DNA of 64,000 nt, taken from NCBI GenBank assembly GCA_030649835.1, contig JAUSES010000035.1:19590-83589 (forward strand). Reading direction: 5' to 3'. Positions 9,370-56,355 of this stretch are shown piece by piece. The position numbers were made by a program, and so were the translations under genes. A model generated the notes under the pieces. It was not told the origin of the DNA and did no database searches. It saw nothing but the letters and a program-made list of their open reading frames with translations. The stretch's first letter is position 1, and each line of letters starts with the position of its first letter. Source of the DNA: a bacterium (GTDB taxonomy: Bacteria > Patescibacteriota > Minisyncoccia > Phycocordibacterales > UBA1550).

Positions 9370-11307
9370 CTATTTCAGCAACTCATTCAGCTGATTCTGT
9401 TTGCCGTTTGCTATCAAAATCTGTGAGTAGAACTTTTTTGCCTCTGGGTATTCTGGCGCAAGCTCATAGGCGCGCTTAAATGCCATTTCTGAGTTTGCCA
9501 AATCTTTCTTATTATAATATGCGCTCCCAAGCTCAAAAAGTATCGTTTGTTTTTTGGGCGAAAGCTCCGAAGCTTTGTTTAAATATGCGAGCCCTTTGTC
9601 AAAGATACCAACGCGAGAGAAAAAGCTTCCTGCAAAAACTTGATAACGCGCGTCATTAGGAAGCTCTCGTGCCTGCTTTTCAAGCTCTTCTCCTGCAAGG
9701 ATGAGAAATTGTTGCTGTATCTCTGATATCCCTTTAGATGAATCAAATCCATTCATTGCAAGCTGACCGAGCTGCTCGCGCGCTTCAGAGGTTCCAAAAG
9801 AACCATATGCGATAGTTTCTTTAAAAAGCGCAAGGTTATGTGCCGGACCCTCAGACCCACGCTCAGACATGGCGCGAATAAGCGTTGTATTTTGCTTGAA
9901 GCCGTTGTGGTTTACAAAATAGACAAGAACAATCGCAAGAATGATTGCGCCACCCGAAACCATGAAAGTGAGGTCTTCTCCATCGGTTTTTCTGCCTTCA
10001 ACCTTTTGTCTTTCATCCCCCGTCTCCCTGTGACTAATACTCACAATGTATGCAAGTATTGTCCCAAAATAAATAAGTGAGGTGAGGTTATCAAACACGA
10101 AAAGATTTTGGAAAAAATATCCGCCCAAAAGCCCCGTCAAAACACTTTTTTCAACGACGGACAGTTCATCCGCTCGACGCCAAATACAGTACATTGCGCA
10201 CGCAAATAGTGAGATATACGCAAGCAGTGCGGGAAGTCCACCGGCGATTAGCCAATCAAAGAATACATTGTGTGCGCGGTCGAACCATTGCTCTTGTCCA
10301 TACATCTTTGGGTCATAGTATTTATTAAATACATAATTAAAATTTTCCATTCCCCAGCCAAGCACAGGACGCTCTTTGAACCCTTGGTATGCCATATTCC
10401 AAACCATAAAGCGCGACTTGGTAGTCGTCTCGGTAAGGGATATTGATCCAAACCGCGAAAGTACTGGACTATCTTTTACAAACTGTGCATCGCGCATCGC
10501 TATAAATCCGCCGACAAATAAAATAACGACGGCAAGAATTCCTATTGCGCTCCCTCGTACCACTTTTCTCTCACGCTCAAATATTGCTACCAAAAGTGTT
10601 GCAAGTCCTATTCCTGCAATAAGCCCGAGCATCGCTCCACGCGTAGCGGTGTGATAGAGCACAAATGTTTGCAAGAGGACGATAGAGCCATATATTGCCA
10701 CACGCACCCTTTCCCCTATCGTAGTGAAGCTTTCGCGCACAAGGAAAAACCCTGCAAGGAAAACATTAAAAAGTGCATAGGTCCCCATGTACGCCGCGTT
10801 GCCCAGGGTGCCGTTCACCCGCACACCGTCCTGTACAATGGTCAAATCTCCCGCCCATTGAAGCACTGCGTAAATTGCCATACACACACCTACCGCAAGA
10901 TGAAAATTTAAATACGGTCGCCAGAGGTCGCGCACCGTGAGGACCGTAGATGCTACAATAAAATATGCAAAGAGGTGGAAGTATGTTACGACCCCTTCCA
11001 TGCGCTCAAAGTTTGACCAAAAGCTCTTTGTGGGGTTTTCACCAAAAATTGCTGAGAGTGTAATGATACCGAGAAACGCCACAAAGGCGCCGAGGAGCCA
11101 TGTTTTCTTTAGGCGATATGCGGGGTCAATGAACGCAAGAACAATCCACGCAGAAAACATTATCTCTACCACAAGGCGAAACGCAAAGTTTTTTCCTACA
11201 ATAAACGGGAAAAATGTGTTTTGTGACAAAACAATAAACGGAATAAATGGCACCGCCACAAACCCCGCCAAAACCACCGCATTCGCCAAAAATTTATGTA
11301 TGTTCAT
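9370..11307 (-). CDS. O-antigen ligase-like (Wzy_C) polytopic membrane protein with C-terminal TPR repeats
   Basis: 645 aa. About 12 TM segments in the N-terminal 430 aa. The soluble C-terminal region carries TPR-like repeats (AYLNKASELSPKKQTILFELGSAYYNKKDLANSEMAFKRAYELAPEY). Confidence 0.6.
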   Translation of the reverse strand: MNIHKFLANAVVLAGFVAVPFIPFIVLSQNTFFPFIVGKNFAFRLVVEIMFSAWIVLAFIDPAYRLKKTWLLGAFVAFLGIITLSAIFGENPTKSFWSNFERMEGVVTYFHLFAYFIVASTVLTVRDLWRPYLNFHLAVGVCMAIYAVLQWAGDLTIVQDGVRVNGTLGNAAYMGTYALFNVFLAGFFLVRESFTTIGERVRVAIYGSIVLLQTFVLYHTATRGAMLGLIAGIGLATLLVAIFERERKVVRGSAIGILAVVILFVGGFIAMRDAQFVKDSPVLSRFGSISLTETTTKSRFMVWNMAYQGFKERPVLGWGMENFNYVFNKYYDPKMYGQEQWFDRAHNVFFDWLIAGGLPALLAYISLFACAMYCIWRRADELSVVEKSVLTGLLGGYFFQNLFVFDNLTSLIYFGTILAYIVSISHRETGDERQKVEGRKTDGEDLTFMVSGGAIILAIVLVYFVNHNGFKQNTTLIRAMSERGSEGPAHNLALFKETIAYGSFGTSEAREQLGQLAMNGFDSSKGISEIQQQFLILAGEELEKQARELPNDARYQVFAGSFFSRVGIFDKGLAYLNKASELSPKKQTILFELGSAYYNKKDLANSEMAFKRAYELAPEYPEAKKFYSQILIANGKQNQLNELLK

Positions 11308-11425
11308 ATTGTTTAGAAATTTGTTAAATTATAGAGATTTATCAGGAAAACTTAAAAAAATCTTGACCATCTACCCAGATACTGGACACGTAGTATGACA
11401 ATCGTATCATAATTATCTAATAAAA

Positions 11426-12151
11426 TTAAATTACTAATTGATGTTGTAGCTTTTCCTTTGCAAGTATCTGTGCCCTTAAAAGACTCTCGAAAGTGCCACA
11501 GTCGATCCAGTCCCCCTTAACTTCAACAACAGCAAGCTCGCTACTTTTAAGAAACCAGTTATGAAGATCTACAATTTCAAGCTCCCCACGTAAGCTTGGT
11601 TTTATTTTTTTTGCAACCTCAATAACTCTCTTGTCGTACAAGTAAAGTCCCGTAATTGCGTGATCGCTAATTTTTTGTTTTGGTTTCTCAATAATTAACT
11701 CAGCTTTCATGTTTTCGTCAAATTTAACTACCCCAAACCTCTCTGGGTCATGAACTCTTTTCGCAAATATCTTTGCCCCTCCAGAAAAATCTTTTATATC
11801 TTGAGAAAAATCGTCTTCAAAAATGTTATCTCCCAAAATCATTGCAACGTTTTCGCTTCCGATAAAATGTTCACCAATAATAAACGCTTCAGGAAGCCCT
11901 GCAGGTTTATCTTGAATCTCATAGCTAATCTTAACACCAAATTCCTTACCACTACCAAGAAGATTTAGGTAGTCCCCCGCCCTCTCTGGTGCGACGATAA
12001 TTAAGATATCCTTTATCCCTGCTCTAATTAAGGTATTCAATGGGTAAAAGATCATTGGCCTATTATAGACGTGAAGAAGCTGTTTGCTCGTAGTTTTCGT
12101 GCAGGGGAACAGCCTAGATCCGACTCCTCCCGACAAAATAATTCCTTTCAT
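11426..12151 (-). CDS. sugar-1-phosphate nucleotidyltransferase (RfbA/RfbF-like)
   Basis: MKGIILSGGVGSRLFPCTKTTSKQLL matches the GGxGxRL signature of glucose-1-phosphate thymidylyl/cytidylyltransferases. 241 aa. Confidence 0.7.
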   Translation of the reverse strand: MKGIILSGGVGSRLFPCTKTTSKQLLHVYNRPMIFYPLNTLIRAGIKDILIIVAPERAGDYLNLLGSGKEFGVKISYEIQDKPAGLPEAFIIGEHFIGSENVAMILGDNIFEDDFSQDIKDFSGGAKIFAKRVHDPERFGVVKFDENMKAELIIEKPKQKISDHAITGLYLYDKRVIEVAKKIKPSLRGELEIVDLHNWFLKSSELAVVEVKGDWIDCGTFESLLRAQILAKEKLQHQLVI

Positions 12152-12209
12152 AGTAGTGTAAGTCTACACCGAGCCATATGTCAGCGCAACCCACTAACCT
12201 GTTCTGCGC

Positions 12210-13052
12210 TTAGTTGAGTGAACTCTTGTATATTTTGAAAATCTGTGTCAATCGATCTTTGTCGAGAGCAGGCATTGATATACCAAATGATTTTGCTTTT
12301 TTATTCGACAGGACGCAATTACTTCTTTTTGCTTTTACAATACCCTGCTCTAATTCTTTAATATTTATTATCTGATAGTTATGAGAAGGATCAATTATTT
12401 TTTTATACATTTCAAGAATTTCCTTATGTTCAATATAACCGTCATTAACTAAATTCAAAATTCCGAAGGGTTTTATTATTGCTAATTTCTCAATTGCAGG
12501 AAACATGTCCTCTATAAGGGTAACAGAATTGGGTACTGAAATTATACTTTTATACGAGATAAGTTTATTTATTAAGTTCCTTGGATGTGCCCTTGCGGAG
12601 ATCGGCATTCTTATCCGAATCTGCAATACAGGAAGTTCCTTCAGGGCCTCTTGAGCCACAACTCTCATTCGTGAGTAAAAGCTCCCAAAAAAATTAGGGG
12701 GGTCCATTTCTGTGAACGCCATATCCTTGCCCCCTTCATAAATGCATCCTGACCCAATCTGTATAGGATATGCACCAAACTCTAAAGCAGCCAGCATAAC
12801 ATTAATCACCCCACCAACGTTCACGGCGACAGTTTCATTCTTGTGGTCTTCACACCAGTCAATGTTTGGGTAGGCTCGAACTCCAGCAAAATTTACAACT
12901 ACTTCTGGTTTCGTCTCCTTGAATTTTTTACGAAGTGCTTGAAAATCTGTAACTTCTACACGCTCAGTAATAACTTCATGCCCTCTATCTTCTAAATACT
13001 GAGTGAGACCACTGCCCATAAAGCCACTAGCGCCCAAAATATAAAATTTCAT
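12210..13052 (-). CDS. NAD(P)-dependent sugar-nucleotide reductase/epimerase (RmlD-like)
   Basis: MKFYILGASGFMGSGL Rossmann motif. 280 aa, consistent with the dTDP-4-dehydrorhamnose reductase family. Confidence 0.55.
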   Translation of the reverse strand: MKFYILGASGFMGSGLTQYLEDRGHEVITERVEVTDFQALRKKFKETKPEVVVNFAGVRAYPNIDWCEDHKNETVAVNVGGVINVMLAALEFGAYPIQIGSGCIYEGGKDMAFTEMDPPNFFGSFYSRMRVVAQEALKELPVLQIRIRMPISARAHPRNLINKLISYKSIISVPNSVTLIEDMFPAIEKLAIIKPFGILNLVNDGYIEHKEILEMYKKIIDPSHNYQIINIKELEQGIVKAKRSNCVLSNKKAKSFGISMPALDKDRLTQIFKIYKSSLN

Positions 13053-13291: not shown

Positions 13292-14710
13292 TTATATATT
13301 TCGCTCATACACATCATCAAACCGCACAATATCATCCTCGCCTAGATATGCGCCATTCTGTACTTCAATAACCTCAAGGACCTCATTTGTTGGATTTTCA
13401 AGTCGATGAATAGTCTCGGTGGGAATATCGACTGTTTGGTTTATTTCATATAAGAGAGTACTTTCTCCTACTGTTGCTTTTGCTACACCTTGTATCACAA
13501 CCCAGTGCTCGGAGCGCTGGTGATGCAACTGAAGGGAGAGTCGCTCGTGCGGGTTCACCATAATTTTTTTTACTTTATATCCCAAACCTTCCTCAAGCAC
13601 GGTATAAGACCCCCATGGGCGCACTACAGTTTTGTGCTCTTTGTACTGCATTTTATTTCTTTCTTTGAGGACTGCAAATGCATTTTTTATCTTGTGGGTT
13701 TCGTCCTTGTGTACAATAAGTACCGCATCCTCTGTATCAACCACGACAATTCCACTTACTCCAATTGCAACAGTCGCCCTCTTTTCACTTCCGTATACTA
13801 AAGAGTTCTCACAATCAATGATCAATGCGTGCTCATTTAGAACATTGCCTCTTGAGTCTTTTCCCAAAAGTTCGTATAGAGACTTCCATGAACCAATATC
13901 TCTCCAGCCAAATTTCACCTTGATGACTTCGACCGCCTTACTTCTTTCAAGAAGGCCTACATCTATAGACACAGGGGAAAGAACTGAAAAATGTTCTATA
14001 AACTTTTCATTATTCGTTTCTCTTAAAGAAATCGCGTGAACAACCTCTGGTAGATATTTTTTAATCTCCTTATTAAATGTTTTTGCGCTCCAAATAAAAA
14101 TTCCTGCATTCCAAAGATACCCATCTTTTACATAAACTTCCGCTATTTCCTGTGGAGGTTTTTCAACAAAACACTCAACAGGCACGGATACCTGTTTTCC
14201 TATTGCAGAAGCTGGTTTAATGTATCCGTATTCAGGACTTGAGCTATCTGGAGCAATACCGAGAGTAATGAGCTTTCCTTCTCCCGCACGTGCGAATGCA
14301 GTAATTATACTTTTTTTAAATGCTACGGTGTCTGTGATTAGATGATCTGCAGGCGAAACAAGGATAAGTGCACCTCTATCTTTTTTTTGAATAACGTCAA
14401 CAGCGAGAGAAATGGCAGGAGCGGTATTTTTTTGAGCAGGTTCTATTATTAGCTGTTCACGGGTGAATCCATAACTTTTAAGTTGTAGTAGTATGTCAGT
14501 GGTAAATTGTTTGTTAGTAACAATGTAAATATTTTCTTTTGGAACAATACTTTCTGTTCGTGAAAATGTTTCCTGAATAAGTGTTTTGTTGCCAGTAAGA
14601 GCCAAAAGCTGTTTAGGATACATTTCACGGCTAATAGGCCAAAGTCGCGTTCCCGACCCTCCCGCAAGAATCACCGCATAATAATGGTTATTATTGAGTT
14701 GTTTTTTCAC
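13292..14710 (-). CDS. manC: mannose-1-phosphate guanylyltransferase / mannose-6-phosphate isomerase (bifunctional, cupin C-terminus)
   Basis: YAVILAGGSGTRLWPISREMYPKQLL at the N-terminus. 472 aa. C-terminal cupin region HHQRSEHWVV. Confidence 0.8.
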   Translation of the reverse strand: MKKQLNNNHYYAVILAGGSGTRLWPISREMYPKQLLALTGNKTLIQETFSRTESIVPKENIYIVTNKQFTTDILLQLKSYGFTREQLIIEPAQKNTAPAISLAVDVIQKKDRGALILVSPADHLITDTVAFKKSIITAFARAGEGKLITLGIAPDSSSPEYGYIKPASAIGKQVSVPVECFVEKPPQEIAEVYVKDGYLWNAGIFIWSAKTFNKEIKKYLPEVVHAISLRETNNEKFIEHFSVLSPVSIDVGLLERSKAVEVIKVKFGWRDIGSWKSLYELLGKDSRGNVLNEHALIIDCENSLVYGSEKRATVAIGVSGIVVVDTEDAVLIVHKDETHKIKNAFAVLKERNKMQYKEHKTVVRPWGSYTVLEEGLGYKVKKIMVNPHERLSLQLHHQRSEHWVVIQGVAKATVGESTLLYEINQTVDIPTETIHRLENPTNEVLEVIEVQNGAYLGEDDIVRFDDVYERNI

Positions 14711-14852
14711 AGAAATATGTCCCCAAGGTTACAACAGTAGATCGCAATATACCACACAAAGCAGAAAAAAGGAAAGGCTGAGAGTAACAGAATATCCTAA
14801 GTACGAATTATTTTTCTTCATTACCTTTGACCATATATCATAATGGCACCTA

Positions 14853-15137
14853 TTGACACCTTTTGATATTACGAATAATATATGTCAAATGAATAAAGAA
14901 ATCAATCTTCACGAGGTTTATACAACAACAGAAGCCCAACAGCTCCTCAAAATAAGCGACAGCACTATGAAGCGCCATCTCAAAAATGGCCTTATTCGTG
15001 CTAATAAAGTTGGTGGTCAATATCGCATTCTCGGAAAAGAGATTCTTCGCATTGTTTCTCCAGAGCTTGAGAAAGGGGCAACGAGATCATACCTTGGTCT
15101 TAAGGAAAAAGTCGTAAACACGATGAATAAATGGTAG
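14853..15137 (+). CDS. helix-turn-helix DNA-binding protein (excisionase/MerR-like HTH_17)
   Basis: TTTEAQQLLKISDSTMKRHLKNGLIRANKVGGQYRI fits the excisionase-family HTH. First gene of the + strand operon, immediately upstream of gmd. Confidence 0.45.
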   Translation: MTPFDITNNICQMNKEINLHEVYTTTEAQQLLKISDSTMKRHLKNGLIRANKVGGQYRILGKEILRIVSPELEKGATRSYLGLKEKVVNTMNKW

Positions 15138-17609: not shown

Positions 17610-18423
17610 CATCACTATTATTAAACCCAAAAAAGTATTCAGCATGGAAGACCTCCGTGAAGTCTGGCGATACAAGGAGCTTCTTTATTTTTTCACATGG
17701 CGTGATTTCAAAGTACGCTACAAGCAAACTGCTATCGGTATACTCTGGGCCATTTTTCAGCCTTTTATGACTATGGTTGTTTTTAGTGTTTTTTTTGGAG
17801 GACTTCTCAAGGTGTCTTCTGATGGAGTTCCCTACCCTATTTTTGTTTACACAGGGCTCCTCTTCTGGCAATTCTTTTCAAGTGCCCTTTCGGAGACGAG
17901 TGGGGTACTTATTGCCAACCAGTCAATCATTACTAAGGTATACTTTCCTCGCCTCATTCTCCCTCTTTCATCTGTCGCAACAAAGTTTGTCGATTTTGCT
18001 ATCGCCTCTATTATCCTTGGAGGTATGATGTTCTACTATGGCATCACCCCGCACATTGCTAGCATCATTGTAATTCCCGTTCTCCTTGCAGTAACTTTTA
18101 TGGCGGCAGTTGGAGGAGGTCTCTTCCTTGCGGCAGTCAATGTAAAGTACCGAGACGTGCGGTTCATTCTCCCTTTCTTTATTCAGCTACTACTCTTTGT
18201 AACTCCAGTTATCTACCCTGCAAGTATTGCAGGTAAGTATTCGTGGCTTCTTGCTTTTAATCCCATGATGGGTGTCATTCAAAATGCACGTGCAGTACTG
18301 CTTGGTACTGCGTTGGTCAACTGGCTTCTTATCGGCATCTCTTTTGTTGCCTGCCTGGTGCTTCTTATCGTTGGTACAATTTATTTCAAAAAAGTTGAGC
18401 GCTATTTTGCAGACATTATTTAA
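17602..18423 (+). CDS. wzm: ABC-2 type polysaccharide export permease
   Basis: About 6 TM segments with the ABC-2 signature. Start placed at ATG 17602 (ATGA overlap with the fcl stop) rather than the ORF-track start 17527. Confidence 0.8.
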
Positions 18424-18426
18424 AAT

Positions 18427-23578: not shown

Positions 23579-23583
23579 GAATT

Positions 23584-24105: not shown

Positions 24106-24125
24106 CAAGTAAAGAAATAACATTT

Positions 24126-25716: not shown

Positions 25717-25759
25717 ACTTTGTCACGAAGTACATTCACGTTATCATGACACAAAATTT

Positions 25760-26638: not shown

Positions 26639-26646
26639 TCATATCT

Positions 26647-29812: not shown

Positions 29813-29896
29813 ACGTAAATACCAAGTTAATCACTGCATCATAGCACACTGAGCTGGTTTGTGAAGTCCTATAAAATATGATAAAATTTAAAAAAT

Positions 29897-34581: not shown

Positions 34582-34593
34582 ATCTTTATACCC

Positions 34594-35946: not shown

Positions 35947-36014
35947 TTCTTGTAGTTTGCTTTATTTTTTCCTTCGCGAGTCATTTCGGAAACATAACAA
36001 GTGGTTACTTTAAT

Positions 36015-40303: not shown

Positions 40304-40313
40304 ATTTAAATAA

Positions 40314-41021: not shown

Positions 41022-41029
41022 AATGAAAA

Positions 41030-45188: not shown

Positions 45189-45195
45189 ATGTTTT

Positions 45196-46900: not shown

Positions 46901-46920
46901 AAATATAAAAAATTTAAATA

Positions 46921-47781
46921 CTAACTCTCAAGCCTTGTCTTAATTTTTTCAATATCTCCATATGTTTCCTCTAGTAACTTTATGTCTTTTTTTGAAGAAA
47001 TTAGTAGATCATTATTCTTTGCCTCAAAACTGCGGAGGAGGTTGCCTCCTAATTTGTCTCCCACGACACGTTCATATTCCTCGCGAAAGGCTGCGAAGTC
47101 CTTTATAAAACAGTGTCCCCCTGCGCCCCGTCCTGTTTTGTGTACGGGGTTCATGTGCGACGACCCAATGCGCGCATCGCTTGCAACTCCGTCACGCACC
47201 GCTTCCCATGAGCCTCCTTCTTTTAGTGCGAGATCATAAAGCATATTCATAAACACAACCTTCGTGTAAAGAAACGCGTTTGCGCCGTACTTAATGAGCT
47301 CAGACTCGCGTGCGGTACAAATGTTTTCATAGGGTGCGCGGGGTAATAGTTCCATCACTTGGTCTGCAGCACGTCTGTACCTTTCGTTAAAAAATGGAAC
47401 ACCAATAATATTTCGAGAAGGATTCGCCACATCGTGAACTACTGTCGCCTCAACTAAAAACTCTGGAGAATGAAGAACAACTATATTTGGATTCTCCTTT
47501 TGGATCGACTCCGTCGTCCCTGGAAGAATCGTTGATTTGATCACTGCAGTTTTCCCTGCTCCGACAAGCGAGACCACCATGCGCACAATTGAATCATCAA
47601 ACCCCTGTGTCGTTGTTGGAGTTGGTACAGCAATAAATACCACGTCACACAGAGCAATAGTTTCCTTGTTTAAATCATACGGTTCTTCCTTCGCATAACG
47701 CACCACTTCATAGCCACGCTCTTCAAAATTGTCCGCATAATTTTTACCAATCCACCCTTGTCCGATAAATCCAATTTTCAT
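46921..47781 (-). CDS. nucleotide-sugar dehydrogenase (UDP-glucose/GDP-mannose dehydrogenase family), lacking the C-terminal UDP-binding domain
   Basis: KIGFIGQGWIGKNY, VFIAVPTP, IKSTILPGTT, and catalytic-Cys motif GGHCFIKD. Start placed at MKIGF (47781) where CTCTAATGGG abuts the ATG. The ORF-track start is 47868. Confidence 0.5.
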   Translation of the reverse strand: MKIGFIGQGWIGKNYADNFEERGYEVVRYAKEEPYDLNKETIALCDVVFIAVPTPTTTQGFDDSIVRMVVSLVGAGKTAVIKSTILPGTTESIQKENPNIVVLHSPEFLVEATVVHDVANPSRNIIGVPFFNERYRRAADQVMELLPRAPYENICTARESELIKYGANAFLYTKVVFMNMLYDLALKEGGSWEAVRDGVASDARIGSSHMNPVHKTGRGAGGHCFIKDFAAFREEYERVVGDKLGGNLLRSFEAKNNDLLISSKKDIKLLEETYGDIEKIKTRLES

Positions 47782-47793
47782 CCCATTAGAGGT
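47782..47793 (-). promoter_or_regulatory. start-codon-adjacent motif (variant CCUACCUCUAAUGGG-AUG)
   Basis: Complementary to 47882-47893 with one G·U wobble, which works only in minus-sense RNA. Confidence 0.45.
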
Positions 47794-47881
47794 AGGGCGC
47801 GACGAATCTTTGTCCATAGAATTATCTGTAGAGCTTTTAGTTATTTTATTCTTCGTGATTTTTGTCATATTTGCAGTCGTG

Positions 47882-47893
47882 ACCTCTAACGGG
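47882..47893 (-). promoter_or_regulatory. distal partner motif ACCTCTAACGGG
   Basis: 88 nt upstream (minus sense) of its partner. Same spacing as the pair near 49 kb. Confidence 0.45.
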
Positions 47894-47906
47894 ACACGTA
47901 ATTTCT

Positions 47907-49034
47907 CTATATTAGCAGGAAACTGGTGTCTCTGCGAATGTGGTCATCCCATGACTTTTTATATGTAGCAAGGTATTCTTCCTTGCTGGATAATACTGGT
48001 ATTTTTACTGTCAATCTTACATTATTAGAGATCAGGCTCTCCATGGCACGAACAAGCGCCTGAGAGTCGCCTACGGGCACTATAAGGCCATTTTCGTTGT
48101 CTTTTACTACTTCCCCTGCACAACCCACATCAGTCATTATGACAGGGCATCCCGCAGAAAGCGCCTCCACAACCGTCATGCCATATCCCTCGTAATTTGA
48201 AGTAAGGAGAAAAATATCAGCAGAGCGATAATATGGTGAAAGGTCCTTCTGCCAACTCTCAAATAGAACGTTCTTCTCAAGGCTGTATTCTCTTACTAAA
48301 CTTTTCAGGTGCGTTTCCTCTGTGCCCTCCCCCACAATGACAAGTCCTGCCTGTGGATATTTTTTGATCACCGCGCGCATAGCATCAAGTGCCATGTCAA
48401 TATTTTTTTCTTGCGCAAGTCGCGAGGCAACGAGAATGACTTTGTTGAACTGAGGATATTTTTTCCTTAAATCGGGTTCGGAGGCATGGTTAGTATTTTC
48501 GATGTTACTAGTAATCGGAAGCACCGTTATTGATGTATTCTTTTTTACTATACTTTCAATTGATTTTTTAATGCGCATTGAAACAACACGAATTGCGTGA
48601 GCTCGGGGAATCAAAAATTTTGCTAGCATCACTCGGATACGATTTACCATTGATTCATTTCTAAAATACGGACTCATCACATCTGTGTGAATTTGCAGAT
48701 GTAAGTGCGATTTAAATATGCGAGCAATAATGTATCCTGCAAATCCAGCCTCAAATGGATCTTGCGTTGTCACGACATCGATCATCACGCCACGACGCCT
48801 CAGTTTAAGCGCAAATAAAATAGCAGAAGCAATATAAAAAAATTTACTAATGGAGTTGGTCGGGTAGAGAAAAATATTTGGCTCAATTACCTCATCGTGA
48901 AGTCCAAGACTTTTTTTTGCGAACACAATGACATGGAGCTCTTCTATAAGTCCTCCATACTCAAGAAGCCGCGATCGCACAGCGCTCCCTTTTTCAAAAA
49001 CCATGCGGTCCGTTGAGATAGATAAAACCTTCAT
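47907..49034 (-). CDS. GT4 glycosyltransferase
   Basis: EGYGMTVVEALSAGCPVIMTDVG. CTCTAACGGG abuts the ATG. Confidence 0.7.
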   Translation of the reverse strand: MKVLSISTDRMVFEKGSAVRSRLLEYGGLIEELHVIVFAKKSLGLHDEVIEPNIFLYPTNSISKFFYIASAILFALKLRRRGVMIDVVTTQDPFEAGFAGYIIARIFKSHLHLQIHTDVMSPYFRNESMVNRIRVMLAKFLIPRAHAIRVVSMRIKKSIESIVKKNTSITVLPITSNIENTNHASEPDLRKKYPQFNKVILVASRLAQEKNIDMALDAMRAVIKKYPQAGLVIVGEGTEETHLKSLVREYSLEKNVLFESWQKDLSPYYRSADIFLLTSNYEGYGMTVVEALSAGCPVIMTDVGCAGEVVKDNENGLIVPVGDSQALVRAMESLISNNVRLTVKIPVLSSKEEYLATYKKSWDDHIRRDTSFLLI

Positions 49035-49198: not shown

Positions 49199-50344
49199 AT
49201 GAAAATCCTCATCGCGACCCCCATTTATCCCCCAGAAATTGGCGGTCCTGCTACGTATATTAAAGAGCTCTGTGGACACCTTTCGGGCTCAAATGAAATA
49301 ACCGTTATTGCATATACCAACAGCGCTGATGCTTTCCCCAATACACGGCTCGTGCCAGTCGGCAAAGGTCGCCCACTTCCTATTCGATTGGCTATTTTTT
49401 TTCTAAAACTACTTAGAGAGGTTAAAAAAACAAAGCCAGATGTAATGTACGTCCAAAACGCAATGGCCGCGGGACTTCCTGTTGCACTCGTACACCTTCT
49501 AACTAAAGTTCCTTTTGTACTTAAATTTGTAGGAGACGAAGCGTGGGAGCGTGCAACGGGGCGGAAGCGCACAAAAAAACGTCTCGAAGAATTTATGGCG
49601 GACCCTGACGGAGGAATTAAAATTCGCTTGATGATGATGATTCAAGGATTTGTTCTTCGCCGTGCGAGCGTCGTCACGACACCATCGGCATATTTAAGTG
49701 AAGCACTCATTCGAACCTATGACGTAAAAAAAGAAAACGCAGTTGTAAATTATAATGCAGCTGAGCGACCCGAAAGCATACCTTTTCCGACCACGCGCAA
49801 ACCGCACCAGATAGCCACAACCGCACGACTTGTTGCATGGAAGGGCATTGGTGGTATCATTCGCGCTCTCGCAATCATTAAAAAAAGTTTCCCTGATGCG
49901 CGCCTTGTCATTGCGGGAGACGGGCCTCTGCTTGAAAATTTGCAAAAGATTGCGGAAGATTTTGAAGTTTTAGATAGTGTCACGTTCCTCGGAAATGTGT
50001 CCCGTGCCGAAACATGGCAACTTCGCAAAAATTCTGAAGTGTATGTTCTAAACTCAACATACGAGGGGCTCCCCCACACCGCACTTACAAGCTTTGCCGC
50101 CGAGATTCCTATGGTAGCAACCAACATCCCCGGCACTAACGAGGCCGTCTACCATGAAAAAACAGGGCTTCTCGTAGAAGCTGGCGATGACATAGAACTT
50201 GCAAAAGCAGTGGAGCGTCTTTTTACTAACAAAAAATTAGCGGAACAATTGGCAAAAGATGCCACCTTGCTTCTCAAAGAGAAGTTCTCATGGGAAGCGC
50301 ACACAAAAACCCTACTTAATATTTTTAAATCTGTTCTCGCGTAG
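49199..50344 (+). CDS. GT4 glycosyltransferase
   Basis: EGLPHTALTSFAAEIPMVATNIPGTNEAV. Confidence 0.7.
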   Translation: MKILIATPIYPPEIGGPATYIKELCGHLSGSNEITVIAYTNSADAFPNTRLVPVGKGRPLPIRLAIFFLKLLREVKKTKPDVMYVQNAMAAGLPVALVHLLTKVPFVLKFVGDEAWERATGRKRTKKRLEEFMADPDGGIKIRLMMMIQGFVLRRASVVTTPSAYLSEALIRTYDVKKENAVVNYNAAERPESIPFPTTRKPHQIATTARLVAWKGIGGIIRALAIIKKSFPDARLVIAGDGPLLENLQKIAEDFEVLDSVTFLGNVSRAETWQLRKNSEVYVLNSTYEGLPHTALTSFAAEIPMVATNIPGTNEAVYHEKTGLLVEAGDDIELAKAVERLFTNKKLAEQLAKDATLLLKEKFSWEAHTKTLLNIFKSVLA

Positions 50345-51304
50345 CCACTTTACAAACTTCATAATCCCCTCTTCGAGTGACACCTGTTGCTCCCAACCCA
50401 AAACTTTTTTTGCTTTGTTTGTATTTGCAAATGTAGATTCTACGCTCGCATGATGACTAGGGCGGCTCTTAGCAATTGCTTTTTTATCAAGTGCTTTTTC
50501 AACAAGTGAGAGGAGTTTTTTTAACGTAACCGGTTTTGAATTTCCAATATTAAAAATCTCGTAGCTTCCTTTCGAGCTAAGTGCGAGCTCAATTGCGTGA
50601 ACGATATCGCCCACATACGTAAAATCACGCGCTCTTTTACCGGTACCGGACATCTCAATTGGCTTTCCTTTCAGGATGTTTTCTACCCATTTATAGATCA
50701 CGAGGTCTGGACGTTGACGCTCTCCATATGCATTAAAAAGGCGTAGGCACACTACGGGGAGTTTAAAATTATGCGCGTATGTGTGCGCGAGGACTTCCCC
50801 TGCCTTCTTGCTCGAACCATAAGGAGCGAGCGGGAAATCTGTTGAGCTTAATTCTGAAAATGGAGACTTTGCACTGTTGCCATAGACAGACGAGGAAGAA
50901 GTAAAAATAAATTTCTTAACTTTTTGGTCTTTTGAAAGCTCCAGGAGATTGAGGGTTCCGTGTATATTCACCGTTTCATATTCTTCTGGATCTTTCACTG
51001 AAAGGCGAGCGTTTGCCTTTGCTGCTATGTGCACCACGTGCGTCGGCACTTCTTTTATAAAAATTTTTTCTAGCGCAGAAAAATTGCGAATATCTGTTTT
51101 ATAAAACTTAAATTTCTCATTCTTCAAAAAAGGCTTGATATTCTCTCTCTTAAATGCAGGATCATAAAATGGGTCCAGGTTGTCTACGCAGACCACACGG
51201 TCCACATTTTTGCGTTTCAGGAGTGTTTCTATGAGGTTTGAGCCGATAAATCCCGCCCCACCGGTGACAAATACTGTCTGTGATTTTTTATTTTTGGTGC
51301 TCAT
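50312..51304 (-). CDS. NAD-dependent nucleotide-sugar epimerase (WbpP/GalE-like)
   Basis: QTVFVTGGAGFIGSNLIETLL. Start placed at MSTKNKK (51304). Confidence 0.75.
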   Translation of the reverse strand: MSTKNKKSQTVFVTGGAGFIGSNLIETLLKRKNVDRVVCVDNLDPFYDPAFKRENIKPFLKNEKFKFYKTDIRNFSALEKIFIKEVPTHVVHIAAKANARLSVKDPEEYETVNIHGTLNLLELSKDQKVKKFIFTSSSSVYGNSAKSPFSELSSTDFPLAPYGSSKKAGEVLAHTYAHNFKLPVVCLRLFNAYGERQRPDLVIYKWVENILKGKPIEMSGTGKRARDFTYVGDIVHAIELALSSKGSYEIFNIGNSKPVTLKKLLSLVEKALDKKAIAKSRPSHHASVESTFANTNKAKKVLGWEQQVSLEEGIMKFVKWLRENRFKNIK

Positions 51305-51335
51305 ATACGTAGTATACAGATTAATTTGAGGTAGG

Positions 51336-51363
51336 GTGGTTGGCGGGCAGGCCCGCCCCACCA
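51336..51363. promoter_or_regulatory. GC-rich hairpin GGTGG-tt-GGCGGGC-ag-GCCCGCC-cc-ACC in a divergent intergenic region
   Basis: 7-bp GC stem extended by GGTGG/CCACC. Unusual GC island in AT-rich spacer, 30 nt upstream of the 50312..51304 start. Confidence 0.35.
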
Positions 51364-51425
51364 GTAACTAAAATTGTTTTCATAAGGTTGTAAAAAATGC
51401 TCTGTCATTATAGGATACAATTACC

Positions 51426-52520
51426 GTGAAATCAACACAGAAGAACGAATCCTTGGAAACCACAAGGAAAGGTGAGATTGAGAAAATTTCTAGTATTTTA
51501 GGGGAAATTGGATTTTCTCTAAAAGACGACCAACCTCATCTCAGTGGGGAACGCTATCTCATGACAAAGGACAAATTGGTTCTTTTGGGAGAACACATAA
51601 AGAATAATGAGCGTGTGATAATAAAGACAAGTAAACACCCCAATGGACGCAAGGAGATTGAAACTGAAAAAAATACACGCGACCTTTTAAAGTCTCTTTC
51701 TTTCACTAAAAAAAATATTATGCTTCCTGCGGAGCTTTATTATGCAGAGCATGATGGTTTCCTTGTTTGGATTACTTCGTATGTACCACAAGAAAAAGTA
51801 TTCGTTGCACACACTCTTGAAGAGCAGTTTTTTCTTGCATTACGCGCATTTGAAGCTCAGGAGGCTTTTCATGCTGCAACATTTGAACACCTTCGTACTA
51901 TTAAGAATACATTTCCTGTTTTTGATGCAGACAAAAATGTTGAAAAATTTGAGTTTTTTAAGAAAAAGATTGAAGAGAATTTTCCAAATAAAAATCTCTC
52001 CTCAACACTTGAAACAGCAACTCATTTTTTGAAATCCAATAAACCGATAATAGACCGATATTCAAGGTATCTCGTTCATCAAGATTTTGTGCCACACAAC
52101 TTTAGAATAAAGAATAGCGAGGTCTATATGCTCGACTGTTCTGCGGTATATTTTTCAAACAAATATGAAGGATGGGCGCGCTTTCTAAACTATATGCTCA
52201 TACATAACCCGAAGCTTGAAAAACTTCTTACTAGATATATTTTAGACAATCGAGGTGAGGAAGAATATTTGAGTTTGCGCCTCATGCGAGTACTTAAAGT
52301 TGCCGAGCTCCTTGAATACTACACGCGGTCACTCAAGAAAACTGAAGGAAATTTGCGTCTTCTTACTGAGGTCCGTATAGAATTTTGGCACGATGTACTC
52401 AAGGCATTACCTACTAACAAAGAACTCGCAGACAACATCCGCAGCGATTACCTTACAAAAAGAGACTCACTTCGCTCTGTAGAAGAAAAAGAACGCCAAC
52501 GAGAATTTGCCTTAGCCTAA
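51426..52520 (+). CDS. protein kinase-like phosphotransferase (APH/choline-kinase fold)
   Basis: LVHQDFVPHNFRI matches the catalytic-loop HGDxxxxN motif of the APH/ChoK family. Confidence 0.5.
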   Translation: MKSTQKNESLETTRKGEIEKISSILGEIGFSLKDDQPHLSGERYLMTKDKLVLLGEHIKNNERVIIKTSKHPNGRKEIETEKNTRDLLKSLSFTKKNIMLPAELYYAEHDGFLVWITSYVPQEKVFVAHTLEEQFFLALRAFEAQEAFHAATFEHLRTIKNTFPVFDADKNVEKFEFFKKKIEENFPNKNLSSTLETATHFLKSNKPIIDRYSRYLVHQDFVPHNFRIKNSEVYMLDCSAVYFSNKYEGWARFLNYMLIHNPKLEKLLTRYILDNRGEEEYLSLRLMRVLKVAELLEYYTRSLKKTEGNLRLLTEVRIEFWHDVLKALPTNKELADNIRSDYLTKRDSLRSVEEKERQREFALA

Positions 52521-53312
52521 AAGCGAGAGTACGGCCTTCTCAATACTCTCATTGTTGGACATAAATACTTTTTGCGGCTCTTTTGAGAACGTAATCGCAT
52601 CGCCATTTTTATTTACCACACGACCGCCTGCTTCAACAAGGATACCTATCGCACTCGCAATATCAAAAGTAGAGAGTCTTCCGTAAATGTTTGCTTCCAC
52701 GCGTCCAGAAGCCACAAAACAGGTATCAAGCGCAGAACCCCCAAAATTGCCCGATTTATTTGCGTTTGCGAGAAGCCTTTCGTATCCTTCACCACCCCAC
52801 TTCCATAGCTCTGGCTTTCTTCCCGCTTTAAATAATACCTGAGCTTTCTTGAGGTCAGTTATTTTGGAAACCTCTATCCTCTCTCCATTCAAATATGCAC
52901 CTTCGCCTTTTTTAAAACTAAACATTTCGCGCGTGATGGGGTTATAAACAACACCGAGTACAGGAACACCCTTATACAAAAGCCCTACGCAAATTGCAAA
53001 GTGCGGAATGTGTCTCGCAAAATTTGCAGAGCCATCTATTGGGTCTATTGCCCACACGTATTCCCCGCTTAATAGTTCTGGTCCAGGACCTGAATCTGCT
53101 GATTCAGAGCCCTCCTCAGAATAAATACCGTACGTTGGAAATTCATTCTTAAGCGCGGTTACCAAAAAATCATTCACTACAATATCAACCGCGGTCACAA
53201 TGTCTCTTGGATCATTGTTTTTCATAGTCACCGAAAAAGTCTCTTTTGATTGTTTCAACAAAAGTTCGCCTGCATTCTTTACCAGCGCGAGTACAAAATC
53301 ATAAGTATTCAT
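52512..53312 (-). CDS. inositol monophosphatase family protein
   Basis: WAIDPIDGSANFARHIPHFAICVGL (IMPase motif). Start placed at MNTYDF because the ORF-track start overlaps the upstream terminator hairpin. Confidence 0.7.
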   Translation of the reverse strand: MNTYDFVLALVKNAGELLLKQSKETFSVTMKNNDPRDIVTAVDIVVNDFLVTALKNEFPTYGIYSEEGSESADSGPGPELLSGEYVWAIDPIDGSANFARHIPHFAICVGLLYKGVPVLGVVYNPITREMFSFKKGEGAYLNGERIEVSKITDLKKAQVLFKAGRKPELWKWGGEGYERLLANANKSGNFGGSALDTCFVASGRVEANIYGRLSTFDIASAIGILVEAGGRVVNKNGDAITFSKEPQKVFMSNNESIEKAVLSLLG

Positions 53313-53344
53313 TCCTTTATCATACTCGTTTGTGTAAAAATTGG

Positions 53345-53373
53345 CAAAAAAATGCTCCCTGCAAGCAGGGAGC
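53345..53373 (-). terminator. intrinsic terminator (GCTCCCTGC-aa-GCAGGGAGC + U7)
   Basis: 9-bp stem followed by U-run on the minus strand, downstream of 53391..54158. Confidence 0.6.
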
Positions 53374-53390
53374 ACACGCTCAGAGCGATT

Positions 53391-54158
53391 TCAAACTTGC
53401 TGTGGGTAGCCTGCCAAAATACCGCTACGGATGAAGGAGAAGTCAGCTTCCATGCGATCTAATTCTATTTGTTGTAGTCCAAGCTTTTTCGATATAATTT
53501 CATCGTGATGAAGCCTCGCTTCAGCAGTTTGCCGAATATTAAGTGTAGGCTTTAATTTTGGATTGAGAATTGCAATACATGGGCCATGTTCGCAAATCAA
53601 TCTTACTGACGGAGCAATCTCCTCAACAGTAGTTTCGGAATCAAACCCTCCAACGTCGCGAAGCGCCTTGATGTCCCACCCTGCAAACGTGTTTTGCACA
53701 CGCCCACCGAGAACAACATCCTGAAGCTCGTCCACCGCAACACCAACAACTTTTGCGCCCTTGTCGAATGCCTCGAGCATTGCTACCATTGTATCTGTCG
53801 TCAATGCTTCTATGGCCTTGTTCGAAATAATGACGGCATAGTCAAACGAGGACAAGTCGAGAATTGTAATCCCCACATTAAGGGCTCCGCATGAATGATG
53901 CCCCGAGGCCTCTTGGACCAGTGTGCTGACATCGCAGTCTTCAAAAAGATTGATTTCTTTTGGCAGAGCTCTGTAGGTTTCCCCACAATCGTAATCTCGC
54001 GGAACAAGAACAACAATAGCCTGAAATATCGCTTCGCCGTCTGGATAATACAAGCTGTTAGCATGTGCGATACTTTTTTGAGCGCGAGCTACAACACCTG
54101 CGACATCTTCTGGGGTTTTTGCATAGCTTCTCAAAAGTAGTCCTATTTTCTTACTCAA
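53391..54158 (-). CDS. hypothetical protein (possible nucleotidyltransferase-like fold)
   Basis: 255 aa with no confident motif. Followed by its own terminator. Confidence 0.35.
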   Translation of the reverse strand: MSKKIGLLLRSYAKTPEDVAGVVARAQKSIAHANSLYYPDGEAIFQAIVVLVPRDYDCGETYRALPKEINLFEDCDVSTLVQEASGHHSCGALNVGITILDLSSFDYAVIISNKAIEALTTDTMVAMLEAFDKGAKVVGVAVDELQDVVLGGRVQNTFAGWDIKALRDVGGFDSETTVEEIAPSVRLICEHGPCIAILNPKLKPTLNIRQTAEARLHHDEIISKKLGLQQIELDRMEADFSFIRSGILAGYPQQV

Positions 54159-54237
54159 TTTTCATCTCCTCAGGTTGACAAAAAACTATAAAGCTTATTT
54201 CTAAGCCACCATTTACACAGCAACAATTGTATCACCT

Positions 54238-55440
54238 TTATATTATCCTGTCAAATACTTTTCCTTTCATATCGCGCGCTATGAAATCCCAATTGTAGTT
54301 TTCGGAAACTAGCTTGTATGCAGTGGCGACAACTTTTTTTACTTGTTCGGGGTGCGCGAGAATATCCTTTACCGCTTCGGCAATTTTCTCTGGACTATCT
54401 TTGTCTACAACCCACGCGGTGGTCTCTTTGTCGGGATTGCGCTTTGCATCGAAAATAAAATCTATGAGTCCCCCCTCTTGGGTCGCAATGATGGGGATGC
54501 GCGAAGCCATTGCTGAAGCAAATGAATTTCCCATTCCCTCCGAGCGACTGGGGCGCGCAAAAATATCAGAGATTGCTCTACACTCTGCAGTTTGCTTGCG
54601 GTCTACCTGCCCGGTAAACCTCACGCGAGTTTCTATTTTTAATTCTCGCGCTAGATTTTTCAACATTTCTTCATCAGGTCCACCCCCAACAACAAGCAAC
54701 TTTATGTCCTGTGGCAAACGCGAAAGAGCGCGAATAATATCATCTACTGCATTTTTTTCTACCAATCGCGAGACCGTTACAATAAAAATATCTCCTTCCT
54801 TCTTTCCATATTTTTCCTTGAGTGCTCTTATTTCGGAATCTGAATAACTTTCTTGTGCGGGAAGCGATGCGCCGTTTGGGATGAGTTCAAGTGGGCCTTT
54901 AAATCCTCTCGCGCGCGCCCAGTTGCCGAGGAAGCTAGAAATAACCTGCACGACGTCTGCCCGCGTAAATGCACGTGTAAAAAGTGGCCACAGTGGTCGC
55001 ACTGTTTTTTCGATATAGGGAATTGGATCGCCCTCTTGAAGCGTTAGTGCGTACCCAACCTTAGGGTTCAAAATTTTAAAAATTGCTGCGGGAACACCGA
55101 CAGCATGCGCCATCATTGCCCAAATACCATCGTAGTGATATTTGCGATGCAAACGTATCGCCATGAACGCGGCACTAAACTGAAAAATAAACTTGTTTAG
55201 GTGAAGTGGAAATTTCTTTAAATCTTCTGCTGTGGGACTCTGTGTTGAAAATCCAATACGGTGCACGATCACATTTCCAATTTTTTCTACTTTTGGTAAT
55301 GTGCTATCAAATCGCAAACACACCATATGAAATTCAATATCATCTGGCGAAATCCGGTCGGTAATCTCCTTGATAGCTACTTCTGCGCCCCCAACTGAAT
55401 TAGGATAGTAAGTAAGGGAAAAAATGAGAATTTTTTTCAT
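54238..55440 (-). CDS. GT4 glycosyltransferase
   Basis: GMGNSFASAMASRIPIIATQEGG. Confidence 0.7.
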   Translation of the reverse strand: MKKILIFSLTYYPNSVGGAEVAIKEITDRISPDDIEFHMVCLRFDSTLPKVEKIGNVIVHRIGFSTQSPTAEDLKKFPLHLNKFIFQFSAAFMAIRLHRKYHYDGIWAMMAHAVGVPAAIFKILNPKVGYALTLQEGDPIPYIEKTVRPLWPLFTRAFTRADVVQVISSFLGNWARARGFKGPLELIPNGASLPAQESYSDSEIRALKEKYGKKEGDIFIVTVSRLVEKNAVDDIIRALSRLPQDIKLLVVGGGPDEEMLKNLARELKIETRVRFTGQVDRKQTAECRAISDIFARPSRSEGMGNSFASAMASRIPIIATQEGGLIDFIFDAKRNPDKETTAWVVDKDSPEKIAEAVKDILAHPEQVKKVVATAYKLVSENYNWDFIARDMKGKVFDRII

Positions 55441-55452
55441 GGAAATACTACT

Positions 55453-56355
55453 TTATGTTCTGGGGTTCTTTGCTAGGAACTCGTTAACGTAGTCCTCGAG
55501 TGTCCGTGTGGCTTTCCATCCAAGCGCTTCTATCTGTGTAGTATCGATAGTAGATGACGGTCTACTCGTACTGCGGGCAGGAAGCATCGTTATCTCAGTC
55601 TTAAATAATTTTGCTACCTCCATTGTTGAATATTCTTTTGCGGAGCTAATGCCGTAGCCATCACCTAATCCTTTCTCTGCAACCAAAATAAGTGCGTCAA
55701 CAGTGTCCTCCACAGAAGTGTAGCTTCTCTTTTGTGTCCCTGGTAGTCGCATGGGTATTGGTTCGTTGTTTAAATATTTTTGCTTAAATATTTCAATGAC
55801 TGTTCCGTATTTACCCTCGAGCTCGCGTGGGCCAAATACATTATGAAAATATACAATGGCATATTTAAGGTCATACCACTCACCATAATTTTTTACAAGG
55901 TCGGTGTTTGCAGATTTTATCCATGTGTAGGGAGACAAATCCTTCCCTTCGGTGCCGTCTGCACGGGCCTCAGAGAATTTTGTGGACGAACCCGCGTACA
56001 CTAATTTAAATTTATGTTTCCTCCAAAATTCCAACACAGCGCAAGTACCATTCATGTTTAAATCCCACACGAGGTGTGGCTCCTCCATGCTTTGTGCTAC
56101 ACGAGAGTATTCCCCGAGATGAAAAACTACGTCAGGGACAAAATCTATAAGAGTTGCAATGTCCTTTGTGTGCCCCTCAATATACGTCACGCCTGTAATG
56201 TGATTTTCCTTTTTCCCCGTAAAATAATTGTCGAGCGAATAAACATTATTTGCTGGATCCATCACCAGACGCTCAACAAGATTTGACCCTATGAATCCCG
56301 CCCCACCGGTGACGAGGATGGTTTTTTTAGCAGATTTTTTAGTTGTTTCAACCAT
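55453..56355 (-). CDS. NAD-dependent epimerase/dehydratase
   Basis: KTILVTGGAGFIGSNLVERLV. Confidence 0.7.
   Translation of the reverse strand: MVETTKKSAKKTILVTGGAGFIGSNLVERLVMDPANNVYSLDNYFTGKKENHITGVTYIEGHTKDIATLIDFVPDVVFHLGEYSRVAQSMEEPHLVWDLNMNGTCAVLEFWRKHKFKLVYAGSSTKFSEARADGTEGKDLSPYTWIKSANTDLVKNYGEWYDLKYAIVYFHNVFGPRELEGKYGTVIEIFKQKYLNNEPIPMRLPGTQKRSYTSVEDTVDALILVAEKGLGDGYGISSAKEYSTMEVAKLFKTEITMLPARSTSRPSSTIDTTQIEALGWKATRTLEDYVNEFLAKNPRT

Follow-up and report, generated by a model that had tools for sequence, protein, structure and literature searches.

According to the published model of ABC transporter-dependent O-polysaccharide export, a terminator, which in the known cases has a long coiled-coil ruler, caps the chain, and the carbohydrate-binding module (CBM) of Wzt recognises the cap (PMC11231755). 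How cells sense that a lipid-linked polysaccharide is complete and can be exported has been clarified for no more than a few enterobacterial O antigens. Here we describe a glycan locus of a Paceibacteria bacterium of the candidate phyla radiation (CPR), located at positions 9370-56355 of a 64,000-nucleotide stretch of contig JAUSES010000035.1 (hereafter the window), in which wzm and wzt are followed by a candidate capping cassette consisting of a methyltransferase and a previously unannotated ParB/sulfiredoxin (Srx)-like protein. The region is a genuine, dense glycan-biosynthesis island: 45 genes were annotated, counting a small HTH gene and merging one frameshifted pair, the coding density is 96.8%, and by our own count from Pfam scans 37 of the 45 genes encode a typical glycan-synthesis domain. 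The Pfam scans covered each open reading frame (ORF) in the window that was judged a likely gene and was 100 aa or longer, with NCBIfam models and relaxed thresholds as extra passes.

The closest described relatives are the O-polysaccharide systems of Escherichia coli O8/O9a (equivalent to Klebsiella pneumoniae O5/O3) and of K. pneumoniae O7, O12 and O4. With these the island shares Wzm/Wzt with a Wzt_C domain, a transporter-adjacent methyltransferase, several cytoplasmic glycosyltransferases (GTs), a WaaL-like ligase and a C-domain that co-varies with putative capping genes, as if it read the cap. It differs in that the host belongs to the CPR, whose members are described as lacking both lipopolysaccharide (LPS) and an outer membrane; in that no eukaryotic-type or AmiN-type kinase is attached to the methyltransferase, the ParB/Srx-like protein standing in its place; and in that neither a long coiled-coil ruler is evident nor a WecA-type initiator present in the window. 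A second point of reference is the slg cluster of Geobacillus stearothermophilus NRS 2004/3a, a monoderm bacterium in which wzm/wzt are accompanied by the Wzy_C-family protein WsaB and the non-reducing end is methylated by the multidomain methyltransferase/glycosyltransferase WsaE. The single-membrane context, wzm/wzt export, a Wzy_C-family transferase and, putatively, methylation at the chain end are common to both, whereas the slg product is a rhamnan and the present locus is linked to fucose, its ligase bears TPR repeats, its capping genes are unrelated in sequence, and no S-layer gene was identified here. A third is Gtr-type glycosylation (GtrA-GtrB-GtrC, GacI-L and CsbB/YfhO), with which the island shares ArnC/DPMS/GtrB-like GT2 proteins, a GtrA domain and a polytopic GT-C-like protein; here, however, GtrA is fused to the GT-C-like protein, whose PMT_2 match lies below the cutoff, and the 235-aa GT2 proteins lack membrane helices.

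The export genes were recognised as Wzm/Wzt in a preliminary description of this DNA, and the domain searches bear this out. Residues ~263-418 of Wzt match Wzt_C, a predicted glycan-binding domain, at 37 bits (cutoff 30.4), and the best match in the Protein Data Bank (PDB) is Aquifex Wzt (8dku, E=1.4e-69), with an alignment that extends into the C-domain. For comparison, 80 Wzt-containing loci were collected (25 from Patescibacteria and 55 from other organisms), and all window proteins were compared against them. A single locus of the 80, in a Prolixibacteraceae metagenome-assembled genome (MAG) of the Bacteroidota (L003), has a window-like Wzt C-domain (52.6% identity; next best 28%), and it is also the sole one with homologues of the methyltransferase (62%) and of the 199-aa ParB/Srx-like protein (38%), in the same order. 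Among 71 relatives of the methyltransferase, three further contexts were opened, in Geotalea uraniireducens Rf4 (L088), an Armatimonadota MAG (L089) and a JGI contig (L090), and in each of them the genes for Wzm, Wzt (with Wzt_C) and the methyltransferase follow one another head to tail. In G. uraniireducens Rf4 (CP000698.1, about 1,943,700-1,952,700) the genes run wzm, wzt, methyltransferase, SDR, a second methyltransferase, GT11, the 202-aa ParB/Srx-like gene and Wzy_C. Identities to the window in these three are 43-46% for the Wzt C-domain, 56-59% for the methyltransferase, 24-30% for a 202-204-aa homologue of the 199-aa protein and 42-44% for GT11. The close relative L084 preserves the full order of wzm, wzt, methyltransferase, 199-aa gene and GT2-methyltransferase gene. 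All four additional loci reached through the methyltransferase or the 199-aa gene (L084 and L088-L090) have a Wzt C-domain of this type (43-92% identity), the methyltransferase gene directly behind wzt and a 199-aa homologue close by. In total, six loci from at least four phyla show co-inheritance of the C-domain type with the methyltransferase and the ParB/Srx-like gene.

Related arrangements extend to the third gene after wzt, which encodes a 496-aa GT2 with a C-terminal methyltransferase-like domain. Homologues of that C-domain lie directly after wzt in two loci (L020 and L028). In the metagenome locus P0156, wzm and wzt are accompanied by a Methyltransf_9-type gene, and 2 kb away the 199-like domain occurs inside a GT2/methyltransferase-like fusion, where the C-domain type of the 496-aa protein sits after GT2 and the ParB/Srx-like domain. 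Co-inheritance of a Wzt C-domain with putative capping genes is what the terminator/CBM model predicts and supports the methyltransferase as a terminator. This role, already suggested in the preliminary description, is credible; the methyltransferase co-occurs with this Wzt C-domain type in every locus examined. The Methyltransf_9 match could also evoke a CmoB-type carboxymethyl transferase; among the scanned ORFs, no CmoA-like Pfam match was found. Collectively, the Wzt C-domain, the methyltransferase and the ParB/Srx-like protein constitute a candidate for a new capping module. The locus as a whole appears to be of a known kind and the cassette to be its new part; searches of the literature on CPR O-antigen ligases, Patescibacteria glycans and DUF1698 proteins with Wzt returned no prior description. 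If true, the portable set would add a new capping solution, and because one copy resides in the cultured G. uraniireducens Rf4, the idea is testable by genetics and nuclear magnetic resonance.

The ParB/Srx-like protein (193-199 aa) has no Pfam match even at E values up to 5, ParBc included, and no NCBIfam match. An exhaustive search of 1.84 billion proteins retrieved only 89 representatives of its family, in about one-third of which it forms the C-terminal domain of a 430-690-aa protein; those whose sequences were examined start with GT2. The fusions seen comprise GT2 plus the 199-like domain, GT2 plus the 199-like domain plus a methyltransferase-like domain, and the 199-like domain plus a class I methyltransferase, the second ending in the same methyltransferase-like domain as the 496-aa GT2 of the window. 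The family profile matches the ParB/Srx-fold serine kinase SbnI (E=7.7e-4) over the segment iyDGvHRaaiakalG, and sulfiredoxin at E=0.17. The AF2 model of the 199-aa protein has a pLDDT of 93.7, and nearly all 50 listed Foldseek matches belong to the ParB/Srx superfamily, including sulfiredoxin, Noc, ParB-N, PadC, SbnI, SerK and KorB. Invariant residues of the family are P90, Y111, D168, G169, H171 and R172, and the DGxHR and TPHY motifs are kept in distant cassette homologues. The protein thus shares the DG(x)HR nucleotide-binding motif and the core fold with SerK, SbnI and sulfiredoxin, but differs from them in escaping Pfam, in an extra N-terminal beta-rich half that contains the invariant TPHY motif, and in occurring solely in glycan loci or fused to GT2 or methyltransferase domains. 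A 2025 survey of ParB-fold fusions does not contain the word 'polysaccharide' and has 'glycosyl' once, in a reference title (PMC12704722).

Domain content, fold assignments, synteny and the co-inheritance of the Wzt C-domain with the methyltransferase and ParB/Srx-like genes are observed directly. The best overall explanation, which we consider probable, combines a capped ABC-exported glycan with a Gtr-type set and a separate conserved block; every enzymatic step below is a prediction. In a first module (9.4-35.5 kb), GDP-fucose and other activated sugars would be made in the cytoplasm, and GT2, GT4 and GT11 enzymes would build a chain on a lipid carrier. The wzt-adjacent cassette (methyltransferase, ParB/Srx-like protein and GT2-methyltransferase, with GT11 nearby) would cap the non-reducing end, the Wzt C-domain would recognise the cap, and Wzm/Wzt would export the chain, which the divergently encoded Wzy_C-TPR protein would then ligate to its final acceptor. 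In a second module, two polyprenyl-phosphate sugar synthases and the GtrA-GT-C fusion would add sugars outside the membrane. The third, the block with GT4, short-chain dehydrogenase/reductase (SDR), APH-like kinase and inositol monophosphatase (IMPase)-family genes, would make or prime a second, lineage-wide glycoconjugate.

Several observations weigh against this explanation. Among ORFs of 100 aa or longer, the Pfam scans of the window detected no initiating phosphoglycosyltransferase (a Bac_transf or MraY/WecA domain), which may be encoded elsewhere, like WecA in E. coli; nor does the window contain an obvious acceptor gene. The ParB/Srx fold matches are modest, with Foldseek E values of at least 7e-3, TM-scores of 0.2-0.3 and alignments confined to the C-terminal 65-135 residues. 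As to a coiled-coil ruler, the model of the 199-aa protein shows only one N-terminal helix of ~27 residues. GT11 genes are frequent in cassette-free Wzt loci, which makes the link between fucose and the cap weak. Finally, homologues of the Gtr-type (GtrA-GT-C) genes, at 59-66% identity, adjoin wzm in L004, the closest Wzt relative, so that the modules might nonetheless contribute to a single product.

Within the capped-glycan explanation, the chemistry of the cap, predicted to be methyl or methyl-phosphate, separates two readings. In one, the cap would consist solely of an O-methyl group, as it does in E. coli O8 and the Geobacillus S-layer rhamnan, and the ParB/Srx-like protein would be a scaffold, a switch or a regulator of termination rather than a kinase. 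This is a serious contender that falls somewhat short of an even chance. Methyl-only caps are known (PMC11231755), ParB-fold proteins are often NTP-dependent switches rather than enzymes (PMC12704722), and the fold similarity is partial; yet the top profile match is a small-molecule kinase, SbnI, across the DGvHR nucleotide-binding motif, and fusion to GT2 and methyltransferase catalytic domains suits an enzyme acting on a shared substrate. From sequence and model, the 199-aa protein is predicted to be an NTP-binding domain, possibly a phosphotransferase, working with the methyltransferase on the chain end, although it could equally be a non-catalytic switch. The more elaborate alternative, which we regard as tentative and on balance doubtful, is that it represents a third, unrelated type of terminator, in which an NTP-dependent phosphotransferase and a DUF1698-type methyltransferase build a methyl-phosphate-type cap read by a matched Wzt CBM, the cassette being mobile among Paceibacteria, Bacteroidota, Desulfobacterota and Armatimonadota and a WaaL-like TPR ligase handing the chain to a non-LPS acceptor.

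The final step of the proposed export route is assigned to the Wzy_C-TPR protein, which matches the WaaL structure 7tpg in a PDB search (E=9e-6). Of the 25 Patescibacteria loci, 14 have a homologue of its Wzy_C membrane domain no more than 10 kb from wzt, compared with 2 of the 55 others. The gene is mostly divergent from wzm, directly so in L084, L021, L013 and L008, and the recurrent order in Patescibacteria is murB (three loci), Wzy_C-TPR (minus strand), optional gmd/fcl, wzm and wzt, and variable GTs. Because the ABC-dependent pathway requires no Wzy polymerase, the natural role of this protein would be to ligate the exported chain, and we infer a putative ligase that likely performs the last step. 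The occurrence of a WaaL-type ligase with wzm/wzt in a CPR bacterium raises the question of what the polymer is attached to in a cell described as LPS-free. It is possible, though less likely than not, that the protein is an O-oligosaccharyltransferase which, like WsaB of G. stearothermophilus, attaches the glycan to a protein such as an S-layer protein or a pilin rather than to a lipid or wall acceptor. O-oligosaccharyltransferases are among the members of the Wzy_C family, protein binding is a common function of TPR domains, and the Pfam scans of the window revealed no LytR-CpsA-Psr (LCP) ligase. CPR bacteria, by their descriptions, have neither LPS nor an outer membrane, and the Gram-positive slg cluster unites wzm/wzt, a Wzy_C transferase and a methylated cap. 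Against a protein acceptor, the sole solved relative matched is the WaaL ligase 7tpg, no S-layer or pilin substrate gene is linked in the examined loci, and murB, which is retained as a neighbour in three loci, is a cell-wall gene.

The preliminary description attributed the whole island to one heavily methylated fucose glycan and likened the methyltransferase after wzt and the APH-like kinase to a split version of the chain-length terminator WbdD. Support for a single polymer of ~45 genes comes from their contiguity at high coding density and from the adjacency of GtrA-GT-C genes and wzm in L004. The kinase fold, moreover, is real. The 364-aa protein yielded nothing useful in PDB sequence and profile searches, and only the fold search succeeded: its AlphaFold model matches APH(2''), MPH and AmiN with a Foldseek probability of 1.0 and E values of ~1e-7, and in the HxDxxxxN catalytic loop H218, D220 and N225 are invariant, a Pfam APH match being recorded for one homologue. 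In K. pneumoniae O7, a known terminator includes an AmiN-like kinase (PMC11231755). The methyltransferase after wzt, however, resembles WbdD only at the S-adenosylmethionine motif (motif I, E=0.05), and whereas WbdD unites methyltransferase and kinase in one coiled-coil protein, here they are separate genes 31 kb apart. The comparison with the 80 Wzt loci revealed no homologue of the kinase. Across Paceibacteria it has more than 1100 of them, with identities of 50-74%, unlike the variable wzt-linked genes.

Synteny argues further against a single polymer. The order GT4(+), SDR(-), kinase(+), IMPase(-), GT4(-), TrwB, DUF4015 of the window recurs in L083 (Minisyncoccota) and in L091/L092 (Taylorbacteria-like), the core genes (GT4_381, SDR, kinase, IMPase and GT4_400) sharing 40-68% identity in these two other Paceibacteria lineages. 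Runs of GT4 and methyltransferase genes precede the block in L083 and L091, with GtrA and PMT_2 genes as well in L091. Neither wzm nor wzt was called within 10 kb on either side of the kinase in L083 or L091/L092, and since the kinase belongs to a block that is syntenic without them nearby, it is unlikely to be a split WbdD partner. The region of ~41-56 kb (GtrA/GT-C, GT4, SDR, kinase and IMPase genes) thus appears to be a lineage-conserved block for a second glycoconjugate and not the variable tail of one O-antigen-like polymer, and we judge the one-polymer reading improbable. The island is instead probably composite, with modules of differing evolutionary histories and at least two separate systems. 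The block points to a lineage-wide envelope glycoconjugate, of which no description was found in the searched literature. A lipoglycan anchored to inositol, resembling phosphatidylinositol mannosides and lipoarabinomannan, could be imagined for it by analogy only; its IMPase-family phosphatase (within 52512-54158, minus strand) scores under every NCBIfam equivalog cutoff, with HisN, FBPase/IMPase and CysQ nearest.

The Gtr-type genes (39596-42814) stand at the left end of this region. GtrA is matched at 66 bits and PMT_2 at 22.9 bits, under the 26.1 cutoff, in a fusion with 12 transmembrane segments, and the 235-aa GT2 matches the ArnC, DPMS and GtrB structures. Together, the two GT2 proteins and the fusion form a putative Gtr-type set for glycosylation outside the membrane.

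A false joining of unrelated contigs during assembly, named in the preliminary description as a possible refutation, is extremely improbable. In its favour, the Logan assembly of run SRR13727527 is interrupted at 15161-15185, and in the close relative L084 the entire sugar-nucleotide segment (11.4-17.6 kb) that separates the ligase gene from wzm is missing. Against it, the two Logan contigs of this run that make up the window overlap there by 25 bases, as coordinate arithmetic indicates, contig L001 is identical to the window across all 14523 bases, a 91.5-kb NCBI MAG contig (locus tags Q7K40_...) bears the same proteins, with genes from both sides of the central region, and the ManC(-)/Gmd-NUDIX-Fcl order recurs, together with the ligase gene, in the related MAG L023 at 65-82% identity, which makes misassembly at the ManC(-)/Gmd junction unlikely. 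The break falls between the HTH_17 gene and gmd, and the absence of the segment from L084 suggests a strain-level insertion or deletion. The G+C content is 0.38-0.41 inside the island and 0.43-0.45 in the flanks. An alternative code in which UGA specifies glycine, as in some CPR bacteria, was rejected because the ORFs under table 11 are long and contiguous and TGA terminates 8 of the 45 genes. Scans of the window for tRNA genes and Rfam families gave no matches. The annotated features are listed in Table 1.

Table 1. Features annotated in the island, with positions in the window and the basis of each assignment
Feature	Position	Strand	Basis
WaaL-like Wzy_C-TPR membrane protein	9370..11307	-	Pfam Wzy_C 77 bits and C-terminal TPR; at least 9 transmembrane segments
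RmlA-like sugar-1-phosphate nucleotidyltransferase (241 aa) and short RmlD-like SDR (280 aa)	11426..13052	-	Pfam, NCBIfam
ManC (mannose-1-phosphate guanylyltransferase / mannose-6-phosphate isomerase)	13292..14710	-	Pfam NTP_transferase, ManC beta-helix, MannoseP_isomer
Small HTH_17 DNA-binding protein, just upstream of gmd	14889..15137	+	Pfam E=1.5e-10; gene call on Logan contig
Gmd	15150-16190	+	518 bits
NUDIX protein, Gmm-like	16212-16667	+	NUDIX 65 bits; Gmm model 63 bits, cutoff 146 (weak)
Fcl	16674-17609	+	NCBIfam 496.8 bits, just below 500-bit equivalog cutoff
Wzm (ABC-2 permease) and Wzt (ATPase with C-terminal Wzt_C)	17644..19683	+	Pfam ABC2_membrane 58.5 bits, ABC_tran 78 bits
Class I SAM (S-adenosylmethionine) methyltransferase (DUF1698/Methyltransf_9-like, 275 aa)	19696..20523	+	Pfam
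Unannotated ParB/sulfiredoxin-like protein (193-199 aa)	20528..21109	+	Family profile, AF2 model and Foldseek
GT2 with C-terminal methyltransferase-like domain (496 aa)	21137..22627	+	Pfam GT2 97 bits; methyltransferase weak, Methyltransf_24 E=0.039
SDR, 173-aa protein, DegT aminotransferase, Methyltransf_24, GT11-like, AsnB-like amidotransferase, CapD/PglF-like dehydratase (minus strand)	22667..29812	mixed	Pfam
GT11 fucosyltransferase-like	25670-26638		146 bits
GT4 (weak), two GT2, FkbM methyltransferase, marginal GT11, SDR (minus strand)	29897..35529	mixed	Pfam
Marginal GT11	33646-34581		26.4 bits, cutoff 23.9
Small protein with 2 transmembrane segments and 632-aa protein (at least 7 transmembrane segments, soluble ~250-aa C-terminal domain)	35641..37913	+	No Pfam match
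RmlD-like reductase and class I methyltransferase fusion, frameshifted	37928..39609	-	RmlD_sub_bind 184 bits and partial methyltransferase
Two 235-aa GT2 and GtrA domain fused to GT-C-like (PMT_2) protein	39596..42814	-	Pfam
Four GT4, Methyltransf_11, truncated UGDH-like dehydrogenase	42931..49034	-	Pfam
GT4(+), SDR(-), APH-fold kinase(+), IMPase-family phosphatase(-), 255-aa protein, GT4(-), SDR(-)	49199..56355	mixed	Pfam; conserved block
APH-like kinase (364 aa)	51426-52520	+	AlphaFold pLDDT 87; no Pfam match

Much of the gene inventory in the preliminary description stands, and so does its reading of a large surface-glycan locus that depends on ABC export, is linked to fucose and is rich in methyltransferases. 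The de novo pathway to GDP-L-fucose is represented by ManC, Gmd and Fcl, to which the earlier reading added Gmm, here recognised weakly in the NUDIX protein. All seven GT4 genes reported were recovered, at 29897 (weak), 42931, 44100, 45851, 47907, 49199 and 54238, as were DegT, AsnB, CapD and the UGDH-like gene, which encodes only the N-terminal and central domains, its C-terminal domain missing; the SDR enzymes number six or more where five had been counted. The APH-like kinase was rightly named. Other counts need revision: Pfam gives five GT2 rather than at least six; one of the two GT11 assignments is clear and the other marginal; and the methyltransferase domains, six in that description, number about seven, of which four are clear (at 19696, 25153, 32837 and 45196), the one fused to the RmlD-like reductase being frameshifted and the one fused to GT2 weak. 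The Wzy_C-TPR ligase, the Gtr-type genes, the ParB/Srx-like protein and the frameshift in the reductase-methyltransferase gene were absent from that description. Its premise of a small-genome organism is reasonable, given that the nearest Wzt relatives belong to Parcubacteria/Paceibacterota MAGs (ATPase domain up to 85% identity) and that the flanks carry CPR-associated genes. A part for CPR surface glycans in host and phage recognition is plausible because these bacteria live attached to other microbes.

To the left of the fucose genes, the RmlA-like protein scores 178 bits against Pfam NTP_transferase and 275 bits against NCBIfam rmlA (cutoff 360), and the 280-aa SDR 66 bits against NCBIfam rmlD; the HTH_17 protein is a possible regulator. 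Further to the right, the genes for AsnB, the weak GT4 (29897) and the GT2 at 31075 (26647-31926) occur together in the same 6 of the 25 Patescibacteria loci and in none of the 55 others, and may form a conserved primer or adaptor module. The 632-aa protein, whose C-terminal 194 aa are 49% identical in L004, is a possible second GT-C; Pfam at relaxed thresholds and NCBIfam returned nothing for the 199-, 173-, 255-, 101- and 632-aa proteins. A one-base frameshift at the T5 run 38421-38425 divides the reductase-methyltransferase gene into ORFs 38344-39609 and 37928-38299, the methyltransferase continuing in another frame, and could reflect a sequencing error, a pseudogene or phase variation.

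At 5311-6501 of L085 (a contig from Logan ERR4801149), one gene encodes both the ParB/Srx-like domain and a class I methyltransferase; the surrounding glycan locus includes GT10 and GT11 fucosyltransferase-like genes and a sulfotransferase.

On the left flank of the island, three tandem T4SS_pilin (PF18895) genes occupy 1097-2720 (minus strand), and a gene at 8125-8919 (minus strand), between murB and the ligase gene, encodes a secreted 264-aa protein with a signal-like N-terminus and a weak Reprolysin-like zinc-metalloprotease match. On the right flank, a TrwB/TraG-like coupling ATPase is encoded at 58593-60599, adjacent to the GT4/kinase block also in L083 and L091; T4SS-pilin-like genes and a TrwB-like ATPase form a gene set associated with CPR genomes. 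The gene at 57212-58600 (minus strand), just beyond the island, encodes a 462-aa protein with a Lamin Tail Domain, PKD domains and hydrophobic segments at both ends; it may be located at the cell surface and is a possible acceptor of the glycan. Beyond TrwB, a DUF4015 putative glycosyl hydrolase (60670-61911, minus strand; 290 bits) is also found beside TrwB in L083 (60% identity) and L091/L092. In the latter two loci, a reverse transcriptase gene follows a few kb past the conserved block (L091 19995-20897, L092 19979-21098), with a bAvd gene after it in L092, and looks like part of a diversity-generating retroelement.

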